63,943 bases of DNA, filler included, from Sandaracinaceae bacterium (GCA_947483975.1; 9 parts of 9 records of this genome joined end to end with filler, not necessarily neighbours in it), one strand, 5' to 3'; shown: positions 7,259 through 14,397, counted from the whole stretch's first letter. Notes: generated from the sequence alone by a model not told the origin. A program made the numbers and translations.

Positions 7259-7361
7259 ACTTCGCCGACTCGTTCATCACGATGCGTCTCGCCTTCGCGC
7301 GCGCCATCGCACGGTGGCTCCCGCGCTGTCCCTTCTGCCACTCACACCACTTGCCACGACC

Positions 7362-7640
7362 TCACGCGGAGCCTCGTGGTGGGTGAACTCGTCGCAGTAG
7401 TGTTAGGTTGTACGTCAGCGGCGTCGTGTTTGGGTGAAGGGTGAAGTCGATGCGATCGGAGACGTGATCCGTCCAGGTCGGCGACTGCACCGAGTTGCAC
7501 TCGGCGGAGAACGAGCCGGTCAGCGCGGTGAAGGTGAGCGTCCGCCTCGCGGAGCCCGCGTCCGGTGACGCGCTCGGGTTGGGGTTCGTCGGTGTGCAGG
7601 AGACGAGCATGAAGAGCGAACAAACGAGCAGGAAGCGCAT
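7362..7640 (-). CDS. Small putative lipoprotein
   Basis: MRFLLVCSLFMLVSC signal/lipobox followed by a PDAG linker. Confidence 0.4.
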   Translation of the reverse strand: MRFLLVCSLFMLVSCTPTNPNPSASPDAGSARRTLTFTALTGSFSAECNSVQSPTWTDHVSDRIDFTLHPNTTPLTYNLTLLRRVHPPRGSA

Positions 7641-7973
7641 CGCCTCCGCTACCACGCGCCGCTCGCGCCCTCGCTGGCGGAATCTCCCGGTGCAACACCT
7701 CCGCGCGCCGCAGGCTCAAGTGGCTCTCGGGCTCCGCCTCGACGCGCGCCGTGTCCTCGGCGTTGTATGGCTGCGATTGCGCAGGGGCGAGTAGCTGTCT
7801 CAGGCGACGTTGGCACAGAGGGGGAGGGCGACCGGAGCACCGCGCCTAAGCTCACGTGGAAGGTCGTCTTCATCGACCTCGCGCTTCTCCGGTCGCAGGC
7901 GGCCGGCTCCTCGCGAGACGCCCTCGCCGTCGTGTACGCGGCACGGCGCGAACGCGCTCCGCGCGGCGAGCGC

Positions 7974-8393
7974 TCAGTGTTTGCCGAGGCGCGCGTCGAT
8001 CGATGCGAGGCCGCCGCCGCGCGCCGCGATCAGCAGGAAGAGGAAGCAGTAGAGCACCGCGGACTCGCCTTGATTGAGGACCGGAATCCACATCGCGTCG
8101 GCGAACACGAGCTTCCAATGGAACTGGAAGTAGGCGACGGCCATCATGCCGGAGCACAGGAACGCCGCGGGTCGCGTGAGGAGTCCGAGGGCGATCAGCA
8201 GTCCGCCGAAGAGCTCGATCAGCCCGCCGATCCAGACCTGCGAGCCGAGCACCGCGGCGTGCGGTCCAGCGTGCCAGCCGATGATCTTCTGCTGGCCGTG
8301 GAACGCGAAGAGCAGCCCCGCGATGACGCGCAGCGCCGCGTAGACGTGGGGCTCTGCGCGAGTGGCGAACTTCGTGATGGCGGCCGTGTTCAT
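7974..8393 (-). CDS. DoxX-family membrane protein
   Basis: LRVIAGLLFAFHGQQK, IELFGGLLIALGLLTRPAAF and MAVAYF motifs. Confidence 0.9.
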   Translation of the reverse strand: MNTAAITKFATRAEPHVYAALRVIAGLLFAFHGQQKIIGWHAGPHAAVLGSQVWIGGLIELFGGLLIALGLLTRPAAFLCSGMMAVAYFQFHWKLVFADAMWIPVLNQGESAVLYCFLFLLIAARGGGLASIDARLGKH

Positions 8394-8834
8394 GCGCTGC
8401 TCCTGGCCGACGACAGGCGCGGCTTCTCACTCCCTGGCGCGGAATCCCCCGCGCGCAAGCCTCGACTGCTTCGCCGCGCGGGTCGCGGTCGTGCCCGGTC
8501 GCGCGACGGGCAGCGCAGCACCGCGGCCACCTTCAGTCACCCGCGCGCGCTCGAGGAGGCGCGCGCCCTTCGCCTGGAGGCCGAGCTGTCCACGCTGCGG
8601 GGGCGCCTCGAGTCGGACTTCCTCCTCAGCTCATGCCGGGCGCCGTCGAAGGTCCCGTGGCGAGGCTCGAGCTCCCCCGCCCGACGCGCGGCGCGTAGGG
8701 CAGCGACGCCACGCGCGCGCGCCCGAACTCCTGGGGTCGCCGCTGCTCCACCATCCGAGCGATGAGCCTACGCAGCTCCGCCGACTCGAAGGGCTCGCCG
8801 AGCTGGCGGTTCTCCGCGCAAGGCCTCCGAACTC

Positions 8835-9488
8835 TCAGCTGGTTTTCCCCGGGAGGACGCTCGTCGCCCCGGCCGCGCCCTGCGCCGCCTGCCATTCGCG
8901 CAGGCTGTAGCGGTAGCTATAGGACAACATCAGGAAGGCGAGCAGCCAAGTGACGCCCGCCCAGACGAGCGCGTTTCGCAGCAGGACCTTCGGCGTGGTC
9001 GTCGCGATCACCAGCACCTCGGGCGCCAGCTTCACTCCGGCCTCCTCGAGGATGGAGCGATGTGAACTCGACAGTCCCTCCCACAACACGTCCCGGGTCA
9101 CCCCGTCGAAGGTCTGCATCCCTTCAAAGTGGTTGATCGCCTCGCCCATGCCCTGCGGCCGCACGAGCACCGCGACCGGTGCCTCTGGCGTCGCCCGCGA
9201 CACCACCGGGATGTAGACGTCCGTGTCGACGCTGACCCCGCGCTGCGTGGTCTCGATAGACACTCCGTTCCGCGCGTCGACGAACCCGGTCAGCCGCAAA
9301 TAGTGCCCTGGAGGTCGATGGCCGGCGGCGAGTTCCTCCACCGTCACAGGAAGGGGGAGCCCATCAGCGGCGTGCCAGTAGTTGTTGAGGAAGAAGAGGC
9401 TCACCACGAAGGTCAGCCAGAGCGGCATCACGACGAGAAACGTGAGCTTCTTCGGGCGTTCGATGGGAGTCGGAGGCGGAGGAGGCAT
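8835..9488 (-). CDS. Hypothetical membrane protein (two TM segments flanking a soluble domain)
   Basis: N- and C-terminal hydrophobic stretches; plausible amino-acid composition. Confidence 0.6.
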   Translation of the reverse strand: MPPPPPTPIERPKKLTFLVVMPLWLTFVVSLFFLNNYWHAADGLPLPVTVEELAAGHRPPGHYLRLTGFVDARNGVSIETTQRGVSVDTDVYIPVVSRATPEAPVAVLVRPQGMGEAINHFEGMQTFDGVTRDVLWEGLSSSHRSILEEAGVKLAPEVLVIATTTPKVLLRNALVWAGVTWLLAFLMLSYSYRYSLREWQAAQGAAGATSVLPGKTS

Positions 9489-10157
9489 ACCAGACCTGCT
9501 ACGCGCCCGAGGTCACGCTTCTCCCTTCACGAGCGAGGATGTGGCGGTCGCTGACCGCCGAGCGCGGCGACGGACCTTGCAAGGGCGCTCATCGAGAGGG
9601 TGACGAGGCGAACGGCCACGAAGGCCGCGATGTTCAGCCGTACTCTTCGTGCCGCGGTTCGCGGACGTCTTCGGCTCGTCGGCCTCATCGAACAGCGGGC
9701 CTGCTTGGGCGGAGGAGCGGGCCTCCGCAGCACCACCTCTGCGCGGAGCGGCGCGTGTTGTGCCAGGACGCCCTGAAACGTATTGAGTGACACTGTGGTC
9801 AGGTGCTCGTTGCTTCGCTCCCGCGCGCCACGGGTAGCACCGGCTGATCGAGCAGGAGCGAGTGCGCGCGGAAGTCGAGGCGCAAAGCCTGCCTCTCCTC
9901 ACGCACGCGAGGACACGGGGCCTGTCCGCGAGCCGCTCGGCGGCGTGAGCGCGGACGCCCCCGATCTCTGCGCGACAACCCCGCTCGACCGCCGCCCCGC
10001 GCGCCCCGCCGCCCTGACTCCGCCGCACACTCCAGCCTCTTACGTGACCGCCCCCAACCCGCAGCCCCTCGCGCGCCGCCCCCGGCGATGTGCGGCGGCC
10101 GCGCCAGCGCACGCTTCCTCTCGACGCACCTCTGCGACGGTTGGCGCTTCCGGAAAA

Positions 10158-10197
10158 CTCCCTCCCCCGGGGCCCGGGGGAGGGCTGGGGAGGGGGC
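10158..10197. repeat. REP-like palindromic element
   Basis: CTCCCTCCCCCGGGGCCCGGGGGAGGGCTGGGGAGGGGG; same hairpin plus G-rich tail architecture as 3290 and 57798. Confidence 0.55.
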
Positions 10198-10365
10198 TGC
10201 GCAGCCCCTCGCCAGGGCCGCCCTGAGCGAAATGTGCATTTCCCGCTGGACAAGCGCCCGCCCACTTCGCCATTTCCGCCCTCATCGCTCCCCTCCACTC
10301 AGGCGCCTGAGGACCCGAGGTCGCTCGCCCGCCTGGCTCGAGACGAGAGGTTGAGCCTCACCGCC

Positions 10366-11811
10366 TCAGGCGCGGTGTCGCAGCGTCTCGAGCTCGGCGC
10401 GCAGGGGCCCGAGCACGTCGGCCTCGAGGGCGTCGCGGTAGAGCACGTTGTAGGTGTCGAACGGGATCATCCGCTTGCCGTCGGGGTGCGCGATGTGCAC
10501 GCAGCTCTTGCGGACGCTGCGCAGATCGATGGTGTGCCGATCGAGGAACTGCATGATGACGACGCGGAAGACGCGGTCGTAGCCGAGCTGCGGCGGAGCC
10601 TCGACGCGCGGCAGGCAGCAGAGCAGATCGTGGAGCGCCGTGCTCGCGCCCTCGGGGCCGTGTCCGGTGCTGAAGGTGTGGGTCAGCGCCTCGGCGAAGC
10701 GCGCCGTCGCGAGCTTCTCTGCCTCGAAGGTGATGGTGTTGTGCACGCCGTCGAGCAGCAGCTGCGGGTCGACGTAGCGCGTCAGCGGCGTCAGCGCGCC
10801 GTCGTCGCCGCGGAGCGCGTACGCCATCGCGAGGCACTCGGCGTGACACGGCACGGGGATGATGTCGGCAGGCGCGAACACCGGGAATTGCTCGAGCACG
10901 CGGCGCCGCACCTCGGAGAGCGTCAGCCGATGCAGCTGCGCGTCGAAGTCGCCCGTGCGCCCGGCGTCTTGCACGGGCTGCAGCGTCACGCCGCGCACGC
11001 AGCGGTGCCGCGCCGCCTCGCGGAGCACGGCGCCGATCTCGTCGTCGTTGACCCCGCGCTTGACCGTCATCACGAGCGTCGTCGAGAGGTTGAGCGCGTC
11101 GAGCCGCGCGAGCGCCTGCTCGTGCACCGCGCGCAGATCCGCGCCGCGCAGGTGCATCAGCGCGTCCCGCTCGAGGGAGTCGAACTGCAGATACACCTCG
11201 AAGCGCGGCGCGTACGCCGCGAGGCGCTCTGCGAAGCCGTCCTCGGTCGCGAGGCGCACGCCGTTGGTGTTGAGCATCAGGTGCCGCACGGGGCGCGCGC
11301 GGCACGCGTCGAGGATCGCGAAGAGCTCCGGGTGCGTCGTCGGCTCGCCGCCGGAGACCTGCAGCACATCGACCTCGCCCTCGTTGGCGACGATCAGGTC
11401 GAGCATCCGCTCGAGCTGCGCGAGCGGGCGGTGCGCGGTGCGCTCGGGCCCGCTGCTCGCGTAGCAGGTCGGGCAGCGCAGGTTGCAGTGATCCGTCACC
11501 TCGAGGATCGACACGCAGCCGTGCTGCTCGTGATCGGGGCAGATGCCGCAGTCGTAAGGGCAGCCGTGCACGACGCCGGTGTTGGCGCGCTGCACCTGCT
11601 CGGGCACTTTCAAGAATTTCTCGCGCCCGAGGCGGTAGTAGTCGACGTCGTCCGAGAGCAGCACGCGCTGCACGCCGTGGCGCGGGCAGCGCTTCCACAG
11701 ATAGACCTTGCCGTCCTCGAGCTGCTCTTTGGCGTCGACGATGCGGAGGCACTCGCCGCAGAGCGCGCGAGTCGCCGAATAGAAGAGATACGGGCGCGTC
11801 GAGTGAGACAT
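10366..11811 (-). CDS. Radical SAM protein, tetraether synthase (Tes/GDGT-MAS, MJ0619)-like family
   Basis: N-terminal CxxC...CxxH, then CPYDCGICPDH, rSAM motif CNLRCPTC, SGGEPT, YLQFDS, and C-terminal SCVH...IPFDTYN. Confidence 0.8.
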   Translation of the reverse strand: MSHSTRPYLFYSATRALCGECLRIVDAKEQLEDGKVYLWKRCPRHGVQRVLLSDDVDYYRLGREKFLKVPEQVQRANTGVVHGCPYDCGICPDHEQHGCVSILEVTDHCNLRCPTCYASSGPERTAHRPLAQLERMLDLIVANEGEVDVLQVSGGEPTTHPELFAILDACRARPVRHLMLNTNGVRLATEDGFAERLAAYAPRFEVYLQFDSLERDALMHLRGADLRAVHEQALARLDALNLSTTLVMTVKRGVNDDEIGAVLREAARHRCVRGVTLQPVQDAGRTGDFDAQLHRLTLSEVRRRVLEQFPVFAPADIIPVPCHAECLAMAYALRGDDGALTPLTRYVDPQLLLDGVHNTITFEAEKLATARFAEALTHTFSTGHGPEGASTALHDLLCCLPRVEAPPQLGYDRVFRVVIMQFLDRHTIDLRSVRKSCVHIAHPDGKRMIPFDTYNVLYRDALEADVLGPLRAELETLRHRA

Positions 11812-11885
11812 CGGGCGGGACGGTAGCACCGCGTCGGCGCCCTCCGCGCCCGTCCTGCGCGCCCGCGCCCGCTGCGCCGAACGGT

Positions 11886-12134
11886 TCAGCGCGCGGCGCG
11901 CTCTGCCCTCGCCCGCTCGCGCAGCATGAAGCCGTAGAGGCTCTCGACCTTCGCGCGCGCCCATGGCGTGCGGCGCAGAAACTTCAGGCTCGACGCGACG
12001 CTCGGGTCGGACTGAAAGCAGCGGATGTCCACCTGCTGACCGAGCTCGGGCCAGCCGTAGTGCTCGACGAGCGCCGTCACGATCTGCTCGAGCGTGACGC
12101 CGTGCAGCGGGTTCTTGGGTTGCTCGGTGCTCAT
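11886..12134 (-). CDS. VF530/DUF2132-family DNA-binding protein
   Basis: NPLHGVTLE...YGW...[26 protein letters not shown]. Confidence 0.92.
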
Positions 12135-12201
12135 GCGGGCTCGGCGGTGCGGCAACGTAGCGCGGACCCGCGCCGCGCGTTACCGGCGGTCGCCCCGCCC
12201 G

Positions 12202-13149
12202 TCACCGCCGGTCGGGCGCGGGCAGCACCGCCTCAGCGTCGCAGCCCGCCGCGCGCAGCGTCTCGGCGCCGCGCTCCGCGTAGCCGACGTCCACGTTCAC
12301 GAGCAGCTCGCGCGGCAGGTCCGTGAGCGCCTGCTTCGCCTCCTCGAGGCCGAAGCCGAGCACCTCGCGCACGGCCTTCAGCGCGCGCACGCGATCCTCG
12401 CAGACTGCCCACAAGATGAGCTTCGCGCGACCGACGGGCCGCGCGCTCGAGCGGAGCAGCGCGAGCGGATCGACCGTGTCCCAAGGGCAGCGCTCGAGCG
12501 CGAGGTGCAGCGACATCCCGTGCCGCTCGGTCACCGCGCGCACCGCCTCGACGCCCTCGACGAGGTCCGTGAAGACGACCGAGATCGTCTTCTGCTCCCA
12601 CATCCCCGTGTGCACCGCGGGCGCCACCGCGGGCCTGTCGTCGTGCTCTGCCGGCTCGATGAGCGGCCGCAGCATCGAGAGCACGTCCGCGAGGCACGCC
12701 TCGACGCGCTCCTTCCGCCGCTCGGCGTCCCACGCGAGCAGGCAGTGGAGGTGCGTGATGAGGCGCTCGTGCGCGTGGTTGTGCTCGCCGTCCACGCGGC
12801 CGCCGCGCGCGTAGAAGAACTCGCCGAAGAGGCGCGGCAGCGTGATGGTGTAGGGCGCGTGCACGAGCACCTGCAGGCCGAGCGCGGAGACCGTCGGCGG
12901 GGGGCCGTGCTGCGGCCAGTCGTCGTCGAGCCCCGCCTTCTCGTCGTGCAGCGCGTGCGCGCGCGCGAACCGCGTGAGCGGCGCCTCGACGCTGCGGTCG
13001 TCCCGGTCGTGCCACTCGTCGTGCTCGGCGCACACCACCTTCAGGAGCGCCGCGACGTCGCGCGCCGCCTCGTCGGACTCGAAGGTGCCGACGATCGTGT
13101 AGCTGCCGCTGTTGTTGCTCGCGAACGCTCGAAAGAGGCGGATGCGCAT
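12202..13149 (-). CDS. Uncharacterised protein with N-terminal FASNNSGSY motif and C-terminal ribosomal L7/L12-like domain
   Basis: ATG 8 bp after the rSAM stop; C-terminus RVRALKAVREVLGFGLEEAKQALTDLP...AETLRAAGCDAE aligns by eye with the L7/L12 CTD. Confidence 0.8.
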   Translation of the reverse strand: MRIRLFRAFASNNSGSYTIVGTFESDEAARDVAALLKVVCAEHDEWHDRDDRSVEAPLTRFARAHALHDEKAGLDDDWPQHGPPPTVSALGLQVLVHAPYTITLPRLFGEFFYARGGRVDGEHNHAHERLITHLHCLLAWDAERRKERVEACLADVLSMLRPLIEPAEHDDRPAVAPAVHTGMWEQKTISVVFTDLVEGVEAVRAVTERHGMSLHLALERCPWDTVDPLALLRSSARPVGRAKLILWAVCEDRVRALKAVREVLGFGLEEAKQALTDLPRELLVNVDVGYAERGAETLRAAGCDAEAVLPAPDRR

Positions 13150-13157
13150 GGGGATTC

Positions 13158-14174
13158 TCAGAGGAGCGAGAGGGTCGTGTCGAGCGTCGAGAGTCCGTAG
13201 CCGACGGCGCGCGCGCAGCCCGGCTCGCGTGAGGGCGCCGCGAACGACTCGCGCTCTCGCGCGAGGAGCGAGAGCAAGTCCGCCGCGTCGACGAACGGCT
13301 GCGAGTGCTGATGAAATGAGCACGGCGACACGCGCCGCTCGCTCGAGACGCTGATGAACTCGCGCCCCGCCGCGCACGGCGTCTGACCGAAGAGCCTCGG
13401 CGCCGCCTCGAGGCGCTCGCCCCAGCAGATGTCGAGCTTGAGCGTCGCGCGTCCCTCGAGCGCGCGCGCCAGCACCGCCACGCGCTCGCCGAGGCGCTGC
13501 GCGTCATCGGGCGAGAGGTGCAGCGCGCGGTCACGCCCGTTGTACGCGAGCAGCAGCACGTCGCGCACGCCGCGCGCGACCCACTCGAGCACGCGCGCCT
13601 CGAGCGAGGCGAGGCGCTCCGGCGTGAGCAGGTAGTTCACGCCGAAGCGCGCGTGGTGCCTTTGCAGCGTGTCGACGGTGCGCGCGAGATCCACGCCGTC
13701 GTGCGCCGAGACGCGCACCTGCCCGAGGTGCGGCGCGAGCCTCGCCGCGAGCGCGTCGTCGAGCAGCGTGCCGTTCGTCGTCAGCGAGACGGCGAGGCGA
13801 GTCTCCGCCGCGAGGCGCTCGACGAGGCGCGCGAAGCCGGCGAACGCGAGCGGCTCACCGCCGCCGAAGGCGACCTCCAGCGTGCCCGCCGCGTCGAGCG
13901 CGCGGAGCAGCGCGAGCGCCGACTCGACCGTCCACTCGCTGCCTGCGCGCTCATCGCGCGAGCAGAACGCGCACGCGAGGTTGCACGCGTTCGTGATGCC
14001 GAACTGCACGACGCGCGGCACGCGCAGCCGCAGGTGCGCGGTCTCCTCGCCGTCGCACACCGCGGTCAGCCCGGTGCGCGGGTCGAACAGCAAGAGCGCG
14101 CCGTCGAGCGCGTAGCGGCGCAACCCCGCGAGCGGCGCGGGTACGCAGATGGCGTCGAGGTCCAGGCTCGTCAT
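13158..14174 (-). CDS. Radical SAM protein with twitch/SPASM-like C-terminus
   Basis: ITNACNLACAFC, AFGGGEPL, TTNG; C-terminal CAAGREFISVSSERRVSPCSF...GC. Confidence 0.9.
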   Translation of the reverse strand: MTSLDLDAICVPAPLAGLRRYALDGALLLFDPRTGLTAVCDGEETAHLRLRVPRVVQFGITNACNLACAFCSRDERAGSEWTVESALALLRALDAAGTLEVAFGGGEPLAFAGFARLVERLAAETRLAVSLTTNGTLLDDALAARLAPHLGQVRVSAHDGVDLARTVDTLQRHHARFGVNYLLTPERLASLEARVLEWVARGVRDVLLLAYNGRDRALHLSPDDAQRLGERVAVLARALEGRATLKLDICWGERLEAAPRLFGQTPCAAGREFISVSSERRVSPCSFHQHSQPFVDAADLLSLLARERESFAAPSREPGCARAVGYGLSTLDTTLSLL

Positions 14175-14245
14175 CGCGGGACCGCACTTTAGCCCCTTGG
14201 GGGAGGGGGCGACTAACACGACGCGCCCTCGCGCTAGGATGCCGT

Positions 14246-14397
14246 ATGTCCCTCGCGCGCCGTTCCTCCCGAATACTCGCTTCTCTCGTGTTCGCCGCGT
14301 CGCTCGCCGCGTGCGGAGACGACAGCAGCGCGGCGCCGGATATGGGCCGCCCGCCGCCCGACTTCGGCCCGCCCGTCGACGCCGCGCTCCCGCCGCC
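14246..14397 (+). CDS. Lipoprotein N-terminus (truncated)
   Basis: Signal peptide with LAAC lipobox. Confidence 0.5.

Follow-up and report, generated by a model that had tools for sequence, protein, structure and literature searches.

The stretch of DNA analysed here (the window, 63,943 nucleotides with filler) comes from a Sandaracinaceae bacterium (GCA_947483975.1), and the element in question is a pair of adjacent genes encoding a radical S-adenosylmethionine (SAM) enzyme, hereafter rSAM, and a partner protein that carries the motif FASNNSGSY near its N-terminus and ends in a domain resembling the C-terminal domain (CTD) of ribosomal protein L7/L12. The window is a chain of contigs of about 7.1 kb linked by N-run joins, from a draft genome of 524 contigs and 81% completeness, and the contig bearing the pair spans window positions 7259–14397. 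The coordinates, frames, gene sizes and 8-bp spacing given by the original prediction were confirmed from the sequence; both genes lie on the minus strand, which had been left unstated. The first residues of the partner are MRIRLFRAFASNNSGSY. Longer open reading frames (ORFs) started by GTG, of 353 and 391 amino acids, are not supported, because the family alignments start at the two Met residues. The ORF upstream of rSAM is lipoprotein-like and divergent, starts about 70 bases away and runs off the contig, and the unit therefore begins with rSAM.

Both the pairing of the two genes and the partner's motif are genuine and far from random. Scanning one genome per species gave 58 loci, in Myxococcota, in Melainabacteria/Obscuribacterales and other metagenome-assembled genomes (MAGs) labelled Cyanobacteriota, and in Planctomycetota, and in 57 of them tblastn placed rSAM directly upstream on the same strand. 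Among the usable metagenome loci rSAM was adjacent in 46/49, the other three having a contig end beside the partner gene, so that rSAM is adjacent in 103 of the 107 genome and metagenome loci taken together. In the fourth exception (L010) the genes are unlinked, rSAM being found on another contig (571 bits) with no second partner beside it. Gene order is reversed in four loci, with the genes still adjacent. Natural rSAM–partner fusions also exist: six were present among the proteins collected by sequence search (P0126, P0136, P0144, P0183, P0214 and P0227), and diverged fused ORFs occur in four genomes. Of nine strong matches obtained when the host phylum was searched with an rSAM profile, five adjoin a recognisable partner, three are fused to a diverged partner and one is a cut gene. 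The two proteins thus form the conserved functional pair that had been proposed, and the motif protein does co-occur with rSAM genes across genomes. Between genome loci, rSAM is better conserved (50–64% identity) than its partner (31–54%).

The Ser/Asn-rich motif is conserved, and is the most conserved feature of the partner. Neither of the computational grounds for refutation named in the original prediction, a motif that is not conserved or homologues mostly without a neighbouring rSAM gene, applies. Since the locus scans used FASNNSGSY as the search pattern, its invariance within those loci is circular; evidence free of the pattern comes from a phmmer search, from a census of 250 collected relatives and from the fusions found via rSAM. 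The census recorded [SG]NNSG.[YF] in 208 proteins, exactly at residue 11 in 187 of these, with SGNNSG (8 proteins), ASTNSG (1) and a Y-to-F change (2) as variants; the 42 proteins without the motif are mostly fragments, L12-only proteins or chance matches. The diverged fusions found with the rSAM profile read [FY]S[GS]NNSG[DE][CT]V and retain the H-x-H of a second conserved motif. Universal features of the partner are therefore a fixed-length N-terminal strand, N-N-S-G, a G-[RK]-[IV] strand and H-x-H, and Tyr17 and Ser11 are not among them. The His-rich middle noted earlier holds in part: H125 and H127, together with E122, are conserved, and its other histidines are not. At two loci (L034 and L069) one rSAM gene is followed by two partner paralogues whose first 21–23 residues are identical and whose remainder has diverged. 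Two proteins were set aside as chance or low-complexity matches (P0223, with PKD repeats and NNAGSY, and P0245), and P0113, which joins the N-terminal half of a partner to a thymidylate-kinase C-terminal half, was left out because it looks like a chimeric gene call.

Table 1. Features of the rSAM–partner unit (positions in the window; residues of the respective protein)
Feature	Position	Strand	Basis
rSAM gene (P0002), 338 amino acids, first gene of the unit	13158..14174	-	ATG at 14174, TGA at 13158-13160
rSAM N-terminal extension (residues 12-52), three beta strands, RRxALDGALLLFDxxTG; candidate substrate-docking sheet	14019..14141	-	AlphaFold2 model and alignment
CxxxCxxC (CNLACAFC, residues 64-71), radical SAM [4Fe-4S] site	13962..13985	-	sequence; invariant in 20/20 homologues
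Twitch-like C-terminal region of rSAM (residues 244-322) with C250, C267, C285, C320	13209..13445	-	alignment; hairpin CxxGxxx...PC
Spacer between rSAM stop codon and partner start codon, 8 bp (gaatcccc)	13150..13157	-	sequence
Partner gene (P0001), 315 amino acids: DUF6375-like domain, second ferredoxin-like domain, L12-CTD-like tail	12202..13149	-	ATG at 13149, stop at 12202
N-terminal element (residues 1-23): fixed-length strand M[RK][IV][RK]x[WFY]xA[FY]A, loop SNNSG, strand xYTIVGxF	13081..13149	-	alignments, census
NNSG core (residues 12-15); Ser14 the proposed target or functional residue	13105..13116	-	kept in diverged fusions; hhalign
DUF6375-like subdomain (residues ~1-131)	12757..13149	-	weak PF19902 matches, hhalign, reciprocal profile searches
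Second conserved motif GGRVxxExxHAH (residues 116-127; G116/G117, R118, E122, H125, H127)	12769..12804	-	alignments
Second ferredoxin-like alpha/beta domain (residues ~128-226)	12472..12768	-	model secondary structure; generic ferredoxin-like matches only, Z ~8-9
L7/L12 CTD-like tail (residues ~239-308), optional in the family	12226..12435	-	PF00542, structure match

The distribution of the family is sporadic, the partner N-domain having been found in 5 of the 401 genomes of the phylum sample and giving no match in a 94%-complete genome of the same genus. An earlier tally with the full-length partner profile (116/301 genomes) was confounded, nearly all of its matches being of the L12 tail to the true rplL, and was redone with the N-domain only. 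The original prediction had proposed looking for co-occurrence in phages as well; viral contigs gave 13 matches to the pattern, none of them a relative, and the ESM Atlas gave no usable match. Clustering of flank ORFs revealed no third conserved gene and no small peptide gene, with ORF picking being crude in this high-GC DNA, where antisense shadow ORFs formed one of the clusters (c1). One contig (L054) from a MAG labelled Klebsiella pneumoniae carries a fused rSAM–partner gene, has a GC content of about 72% and groups with Myxococcota in the rSAM tree; it is probably mis-binned.

The rSAM protein matches PF04055 at 58.7 bits and has the motif FGGGEP at residues 103–108. C64, C68 and C71 of the radical SAM site and the four cysteines of the C-terminal region are invariant in 20/20 aligned homologues, and the pattern of the latter four, as far as an alignment can tell, fits a single auxiliary cluster of the twitch-like type. 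Of the twitch/SPASM-like tail first described, the twitch part thus stands, whereas SPASM (PF13186) gives weak matches in 6/20 family members (best E 0.0032). No NCBIfam family was at or above its cut-off for rSAM. The AlphaFold2 model (mean predicted local distance difference test score, pLDDT, 80.8; predicted template modelling score, pTM, 0.83) places a confident three-stranded sheet ahead of the barrel, with strands at residues 19–23, 26–30 and 37–41 and pLDDT of 91, 91, 83 and 91 in blocks of 10 residues; this N-terminal extension is kept across the family and in the DUF6375-linked rSAM discussed below. A sequence search of the PDB with rSAM gave generic core matches only. The model is closest to peptide maturases: the best solved structures were SkfB (Z 23.1, root-mean-square deviation (rmsd) 3.4, 292 residues aligned), SuiB (Z 22.7, 306 aligned) and PqqE (Z 22.0), followed by the anaerobic sulfatase-maturating enzyme anSME (Z 20.2), MoaA (Z 20.0), viperins (Z about 19) and the pyruvate formate-lyase (PFL) activase (Z 13.4). 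In the SkfB and SuiB alignments the first model residues are 16 and 12, so that the N-terminal domains are covered, the ranges giving only the first and last aligned residues. Assignment to the prokaryotic viperins was rejected, since the score for NF038283 is 44.4 bits (cut-off 180) and the PADLOC pVip profile (50 bits) is matched at positions 1–100 of 257 only.

The partner is modelled (pLDDT 90.9, pTM 0.78) as three alpha/beta units at residues 16–126, 128–224 and 239–308, and residues 1–10, although conserved, have a pLDDT below 50 in this monomer model. The L7/L12-CTD-like end of the protein is borne out by a PF00542 match of 34.3 bits (cut-off 25.9; residues 245–306), by the family profile against PDB entry 1ctf (E 1.3e-11) and by superposition of the modelled tail on that structure, the E. 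coli L12 CTD, with a template modelling (TM) score of 0.90 and an rmsd of 1.2 Å over 67 columns at 34% identity. A PDB sequence search with the partner returned L12 only, and PADLOC no family. The tail segment LKAVREVLGFGLEEAK aligns with IKVVREITSLGLAEAK of the host's own bL12, and is what we take to be the factor-binding face of L12. In structural comparison the tail scored Z 12.0 against 8yeq and Z 9.4 against ClpS; as ClpS has the same fold, the fold alone does not imply GTPase binding. The tail was detected in 40/107 loci, a lower bound given the many cut contigs, and forms of about 240 amino acids without it are common. An optional tail cannot make ribosomal-stalk mimicry the core function of the family, and that part of the original prediction concerns an optional domain only. 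Four other proteins (P0231, P0234, P0242 and P0246) carry four to six tandem L12-CTD-like domains, so that this fold is reused as a module outside the ribosome.

Judged by sequence comparison, the gene pair is best classed as distantly related to Avap1/Avap2, as a stand-alone, domain-extended rSAM–DUF6375 module. The Avs2 anti-phage operon of Klebsiella pneumoniae encodes Avap1, a radical SAM protein, and Avap2, which is DUF6375-like; Avap2 binds Avs2 and is required for defence, and Avap1 is required against phage T2 and not against SECphi18 (PMC11564622, in the parts of the article that were available). In the same parts, the authors report having found no viperin-type nucleotides and no NTP pocket for Avap1, and state that the roles of both proteins, which are needed for full Avs2 defence, are unknown (PMC11564622). 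The earlier statement that no characterised example exists therefore holds for the biochemistry and falls short in the genetics, since Avap1/Avap2 have been described genetically as Avs2 accessories, as far as that text goes. We found no paper on the rSAM–partner family itself, and PMC11564622 was the only one found to mention DUF6375.

Several comparisons suggest this kinship. PF19902 (DUF6375) matches 21 of 33 partner N-domains at 13–18 bits, under the gathering cut-off of 27.5, and the matches are always colinear, with residues 3–44 lying on profile positions 1–42; P0001 itself has no match at E ≤ 0.1. Aligned by hhalign with 22 DUF6375 sequences, the N-domain gave E 0.0042 and a probability of 8% over 123 colinear columns, residues 4–131 of the partner lying on residues 2–127 of DUF6375 with both conserved motifs in register. 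FASNNSGSYTIVGxF is paired with HGSEHSANLVMIGHF and GGRVExExxHAH with GARIEVYSAHDH, Ser14 falls on Ser12 of DUF6375, and a DUF6375 Ala falls on Gly15. The second motif, GGRVxxExxHAH, aligns with RGARIEVYSAHDH of DUF6375, and the fused forms read VVYSGVHEH, intermediate between the two families. In reciprocal searches with profile hidden Markov models (Z set to 100000), 116/120 DUF6375 proteins were matched at E<10 and 44 partner proteins in the other direction, and among 604 background ORFs no unrelated one was matched. The DUF6375 sequences are 74–97% identical to one another over all 136 residues (L113:2641-3048; P0373–P0492), so that they amount to few independent observations; they come from sources including Halomonas, Myxococcota, Cyanobacteria, Kiloniellaceae and a Sorangium plasmid, and this uniformity suggests strong constraint together with horizontal spread.

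The link is also seen on the side of the enzyme. At L113, in a genome of the host phylum, an rSAM gene is followed by a DUF6375 gene (139 bits) and then by Avs2 (PADLOC E 1e-71). The rSAM studied here is 32% identical to the L113 enzyme over 217 residues that include the N-terminal extension (E 2e-15), and the L113 enzyme matches the rSAM of 92/107 loci. It was with this Avap-like operon, and not with KpAvap1/2 themselves, that the comparison was made. Both arrangements have a radical SAM gene followed directly by a DUF6375-type gene. They differ in the loop (ASNNSGSY here, HGSEHSAN in DUF6375), in the extra ferredoxin-like domain and frequent L12-like tail of the partner as against the 136 residues of an Avap2-size DUF6375 protein, in the four auxiliary cysteines kept here as against two fewer, by eye, in the L113 enzyme, in the PF19902 scores below the gathering cut-off, and in the absence of Avs2: a tblastn search with the L113 Avs2 fragment found none within 6–8 kb of the pair in 107 loci, and the window contig has none either.

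Among better characterised systems, the maturases of ribosomally synthesised and post-translationally modified peptides (SkfB, SuiB, CteB and PqqE) resemble the pair in giving the best structural matches, in the combination of CxxxCxxC with a predicted Cys-ligated auxiliary site after a CxxG...PC hairpin, and in having the substrate gene, here a presumed one, directly downstream. In contrast to their short leader–core peptides, the presumed substrate is a folded protein of 240–320 residues with an N-terminal motif. The NNSG motif contains no Cys, and a thioether link is therefore excluded. The rSAM extension differs as well, comprising about 50 residues in three strands, with no PqqD Pfam match at E ≤ 1 and no family-level NCBIfam match. 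In the system of anSME (AtsB-type) and Ser/Cys-type sulfatases, a radical SAM enzyme that carries auxiliary cluster(s) makes the catalytic residue of a folded enzyme by oxidising Ser or Cys close to the N-terminus of the latter. The anSME structure matches the rSAM model well, but the partner lacks the sulfatase motif (C/S)xPxR and does not have the alkaline-phosphatase fold, and rSAM has one auxiliary site and not two; a sulfatase reading was set aside. At the L010 locus a 1538-residue protein with a C-terminal FGE-sulfatase domain (L010:3189-7805, plus strand) ends about 195 nt before the partner gene that lacks an adjacent rSAM. A formylglycine idea drawn from this neighbour was likewise set aside, as it is a single case and the genome has rSAM on another contig.

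The explanation that we favour, with a probability of roughly 45%, is that rSAM modifies the invariant N-terminal loop of its partner. The partner's N-terminal strand would dock on the N-terminal sheet of rSAM, and the 5′-deoxyadenosyl radical would remove a hydrogen from the NNSG loop, with Ser14 or Gly15 as the likeliest site. The auxiliary cluster would accept the second electron, making an oxidative outcome likely, and the product would be an oxidised or cross-linked residue beside His125, His127 and Glu122. The matured partner would then be the working part, an adaptor or sensor whose target is set by the variable C-terminal domains; in this genome the L12-CTD-like module could bind translational GTPases. 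This adaptor or sensor role is a proposal made from genomic context. Protein maturation is favoured because of the maturase-like structure of rSAM and the conserved yet unpacked N-terminus of the partner, because of the paralogue pattern at L034 and L069 and the lack of another candidate substrate gene, and because of a weak pass in complex prediction. The last gave 'weak support' with a score of 0.39 (runs 0.39, 0.44 and 0.21) against 0.00 for the best of three controls. The mark applied is reached by 116/157 solved complexes and 2/215 mismatched pairs, only 18 of the 157 having passed at scores of 0.60 or less together with both passing mismatches, and these counts hold only roughly here, since alignments of our own and ligands went into the prediction. 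Agreement between the runs covers at least 40% of contacts, and the partner has a pLDDT of at least 64.

A number of observations weigh against such a modification. No modified partner has been observed, and the closeness of rSAM to maturases with an N-terminal substrate-binding domain, which fits the motif being the modification site as first proposed, does not show that it is one. The complex score is only weak, and no contacts came with it that would place the loop at the active site. Neither the missing PqqD match of the short extension nor the distant DUF6375 relationship helps, with Pfam scores below the cut-off, no such match for P0001 and a low hhalign probability. Because the L113 enzyme lacks two of the auxiliary cysteines, its chemistry may differ or the cluster may be non-essential, and because Avap2 works against one phage without Avap1, it has a role independent of the radical SAM enzyme, to judge from the available parts of PMC11564622. 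The link to RNA-repair operons described below is confined to 13/107 loci, essentially one clade and one separate case, and no RtcB was found in this assembly. Fusions of the Rosetta-stone kind are a more usual sign of two subunits of the same enzyme than of an enzyme–substrate pair, and the conserved Ser, His-x-His and Glu/Arg would also be in keeping with a catalytic or metal site within the partner itself.

The last two points lead to the main rival explanation, which we regard as somewhat unlikely and in which rSAM and an unmodified partner are subunits of one enzyme whose target is a third molecule, be it a nucleotide, a metabolite or the end of an RNA, with Ser14, His125, His127, Glu122 and Arg118 forming a binding, catalytic or metal site. 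The natural fusions fit it better than they fit maturation; the invariant residues lie where strand 1 of a ferredoxin-like domain starts and where its strand 4 ends, which from the topology should place them side by side; some loci contain RtcB and RtcA, both of which act on RNA ends; and viperins are among the structural neighbours. Against it speak the best structural matches, which are peptide maturases and not small-molecule enzymes, the conserved N-terminal strand that stays unpacked in the monomer model, the tandem paralogues that share one rSAM and have identical N-termini, and the flanks, in which no candidate substrate gene is conserved. The related Avap1 had neither viperin-type nucleotides nor an NTP pocket, according to the available parts of PMC11564622. 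The pair could also simply serve in defence as Avap1/Avap2 do, as an accessory that works only with an unlinked STAND/Avs effector elsewhere in the genome, as its homology to the Avs2-adjacent pair at L113 and its sporadic distribution (5/401 genomes, no match in the same-genus genome) would allow. We find this quite improbable, since no Avs2 homologue lies within 6–8 kb in 107 loci, the partner carries two domains beyond what the 136-residue DUF6375 proteins have, PADLOC has no match for it and no relatives occur on viral contigs.

Highly improbable, in our estimate, is a partner of the glycyl-radical type, for which rSAM would be the activase, with Gly15, at the tip of an N-terminal hairpin, carrying the stable radical. 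The invariant Gly15 does lie in a loop between strand-like segments, the model shows this loop as mobile, and most members have an aromatic residue two positions further on. The loop, however, reads NNSGxY and not RVxG[FWY], the glycyl-radical consensus; in the diverged fusions Cys or Thr stands in place of the aromatic residue, and DUF6375 has Ala where the partner has Gly15. The PFL activase matches the rSAM model over the core only, at Z 13.4 as against Z 23 for SkfB, and the score for NrdG2 is 30.1 bits (cut-off 131). To our knowledge, glycyl-radical activases are without a four-Cys twitch domain, and the hosts of the pair belong to what we take to be mostly aerobic lineages. Finally, the chance that the downstream gene is an ordinary L7/L12 paralogue beside which rSAM lies by accident is negligible. 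Many members are named 'ribosomal protein L7/L12' in public records, a label that is misleading: although the last ~70 residues or so share the bL12 fold, the partner lacks the L12 N-terminal domain for dimerisation and L10 binding, TIGR00855 reaches 34.6 bits against a cut-off of 84.4 and over the CTD only, and the true rplL lies elsewhere in the genome (contig C20, 103.7 bits). The tail is missing in many members, and rSAM is adjacent in all but four loci; this explanation is refuted.

The module may belong to stress or conflict responses touching the translation apparatus, which is suggested by its placement in RNA-repair (Rtc) operons in one clade. RtcB lies directly upstream of the pair in 13/107 loci; divergent RtcR was confirmed in 4/4 loci tested, and RtcA in 2/2 intervening ORFs tested. 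In a FastTree phylogeny of 88 rSAM sequences, several rows of which are near-duplicates, 12 of the 13 Rtc loci group together in a single supported clade (13 rows), and a Planctomycetota case stands apart. The latter (L032) has an HD-domain protein (PF13328; L032:5174-5719, plus strand) before RtcB, in place of the RtcR of the Myxococcota clade. The copy studied here belongs to a Polyangia-type clade of 24 rows without RtcB, in which 20/24 rows have the L12 tail, and a search for RtcB in this 81%-complete assembly found none. Comparable are Rtc operons to which a ribosome-directed factor has been added, such as RtcB2–PrfH: the pair in the Rtc clade follows RtcB, or RtcB and RtcA, under divergent RtcR, as an accessory of an operon for mending RNA of the translation machinery; it differs in having no homology to PrfH, in being so placed in a minority of loci and in lacking RtcB here, as far as the available account of that system allows the comparison.

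Two further genes lie downstream on the same strand (window 11886–12155 and 10366–11964, both minus), a small protein of the VF530 family (PF09905, 116.9 bits) and a 532-residue radical SAM protein with an HMPTM-type zinc ribbon. The latter is unrelated to the first rSAM and resembles TrsS (297 bits, cut-off 490) and the tetraether synthase Tes (244 bits, cut-off 450). Both were rejected as members of the unit, being present in 0/58 genome loci. In a Pyxidicoccus genome a Memo-like protein (PF01875; L042:8814-9710, plus strand) was seen once just downstream of the pair; Memo-like proteins are part of another rSAM-linked system, AmmeMemoRadiSam. DNA nearly identical to window 12150–14250 is present, beyond the possible source samples, in metagenome runs of lake and fresh water that belong to several studies, and there were no RNA runs among those listed.

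The proposed rSAM protein-maturation step would have two links to the translation apparatus, through the Rtc operons in one clade and through the L7/L12 CTD fold in another; a connection of rSAM protein maturation to either was not found described in the literature. A bolder version, rather unlikely in our view, is that rSAM adds a new modification to Ser14/Gly15 of a DUF6375-type protein, for example an aldehyde or a cross-link beside His-x-His, and that the modified protein is the sensor or adaptor of a conflict system. Its L12-tailed form would be a bait for, or mimic of, the ribosomal stalk that reports or counters an attack on the translation GTPase centre, and the form paired with Avs2, Avap2, would gate an abortive-infection nuclease. 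If true, this would identify the chemistry still missing for Avap1/Avap2 and establish protein maturation as a step in both bacterial immunity and the response to RNA damage. The family described here offers a simpler, stand-alone two-gene form of such a system, with a sharply delimited candidate for the target loop (NNSG), a complete set of auxiliary-cluster ligands and fusions that occur naturally, and its chemistry is therefore directly testable.

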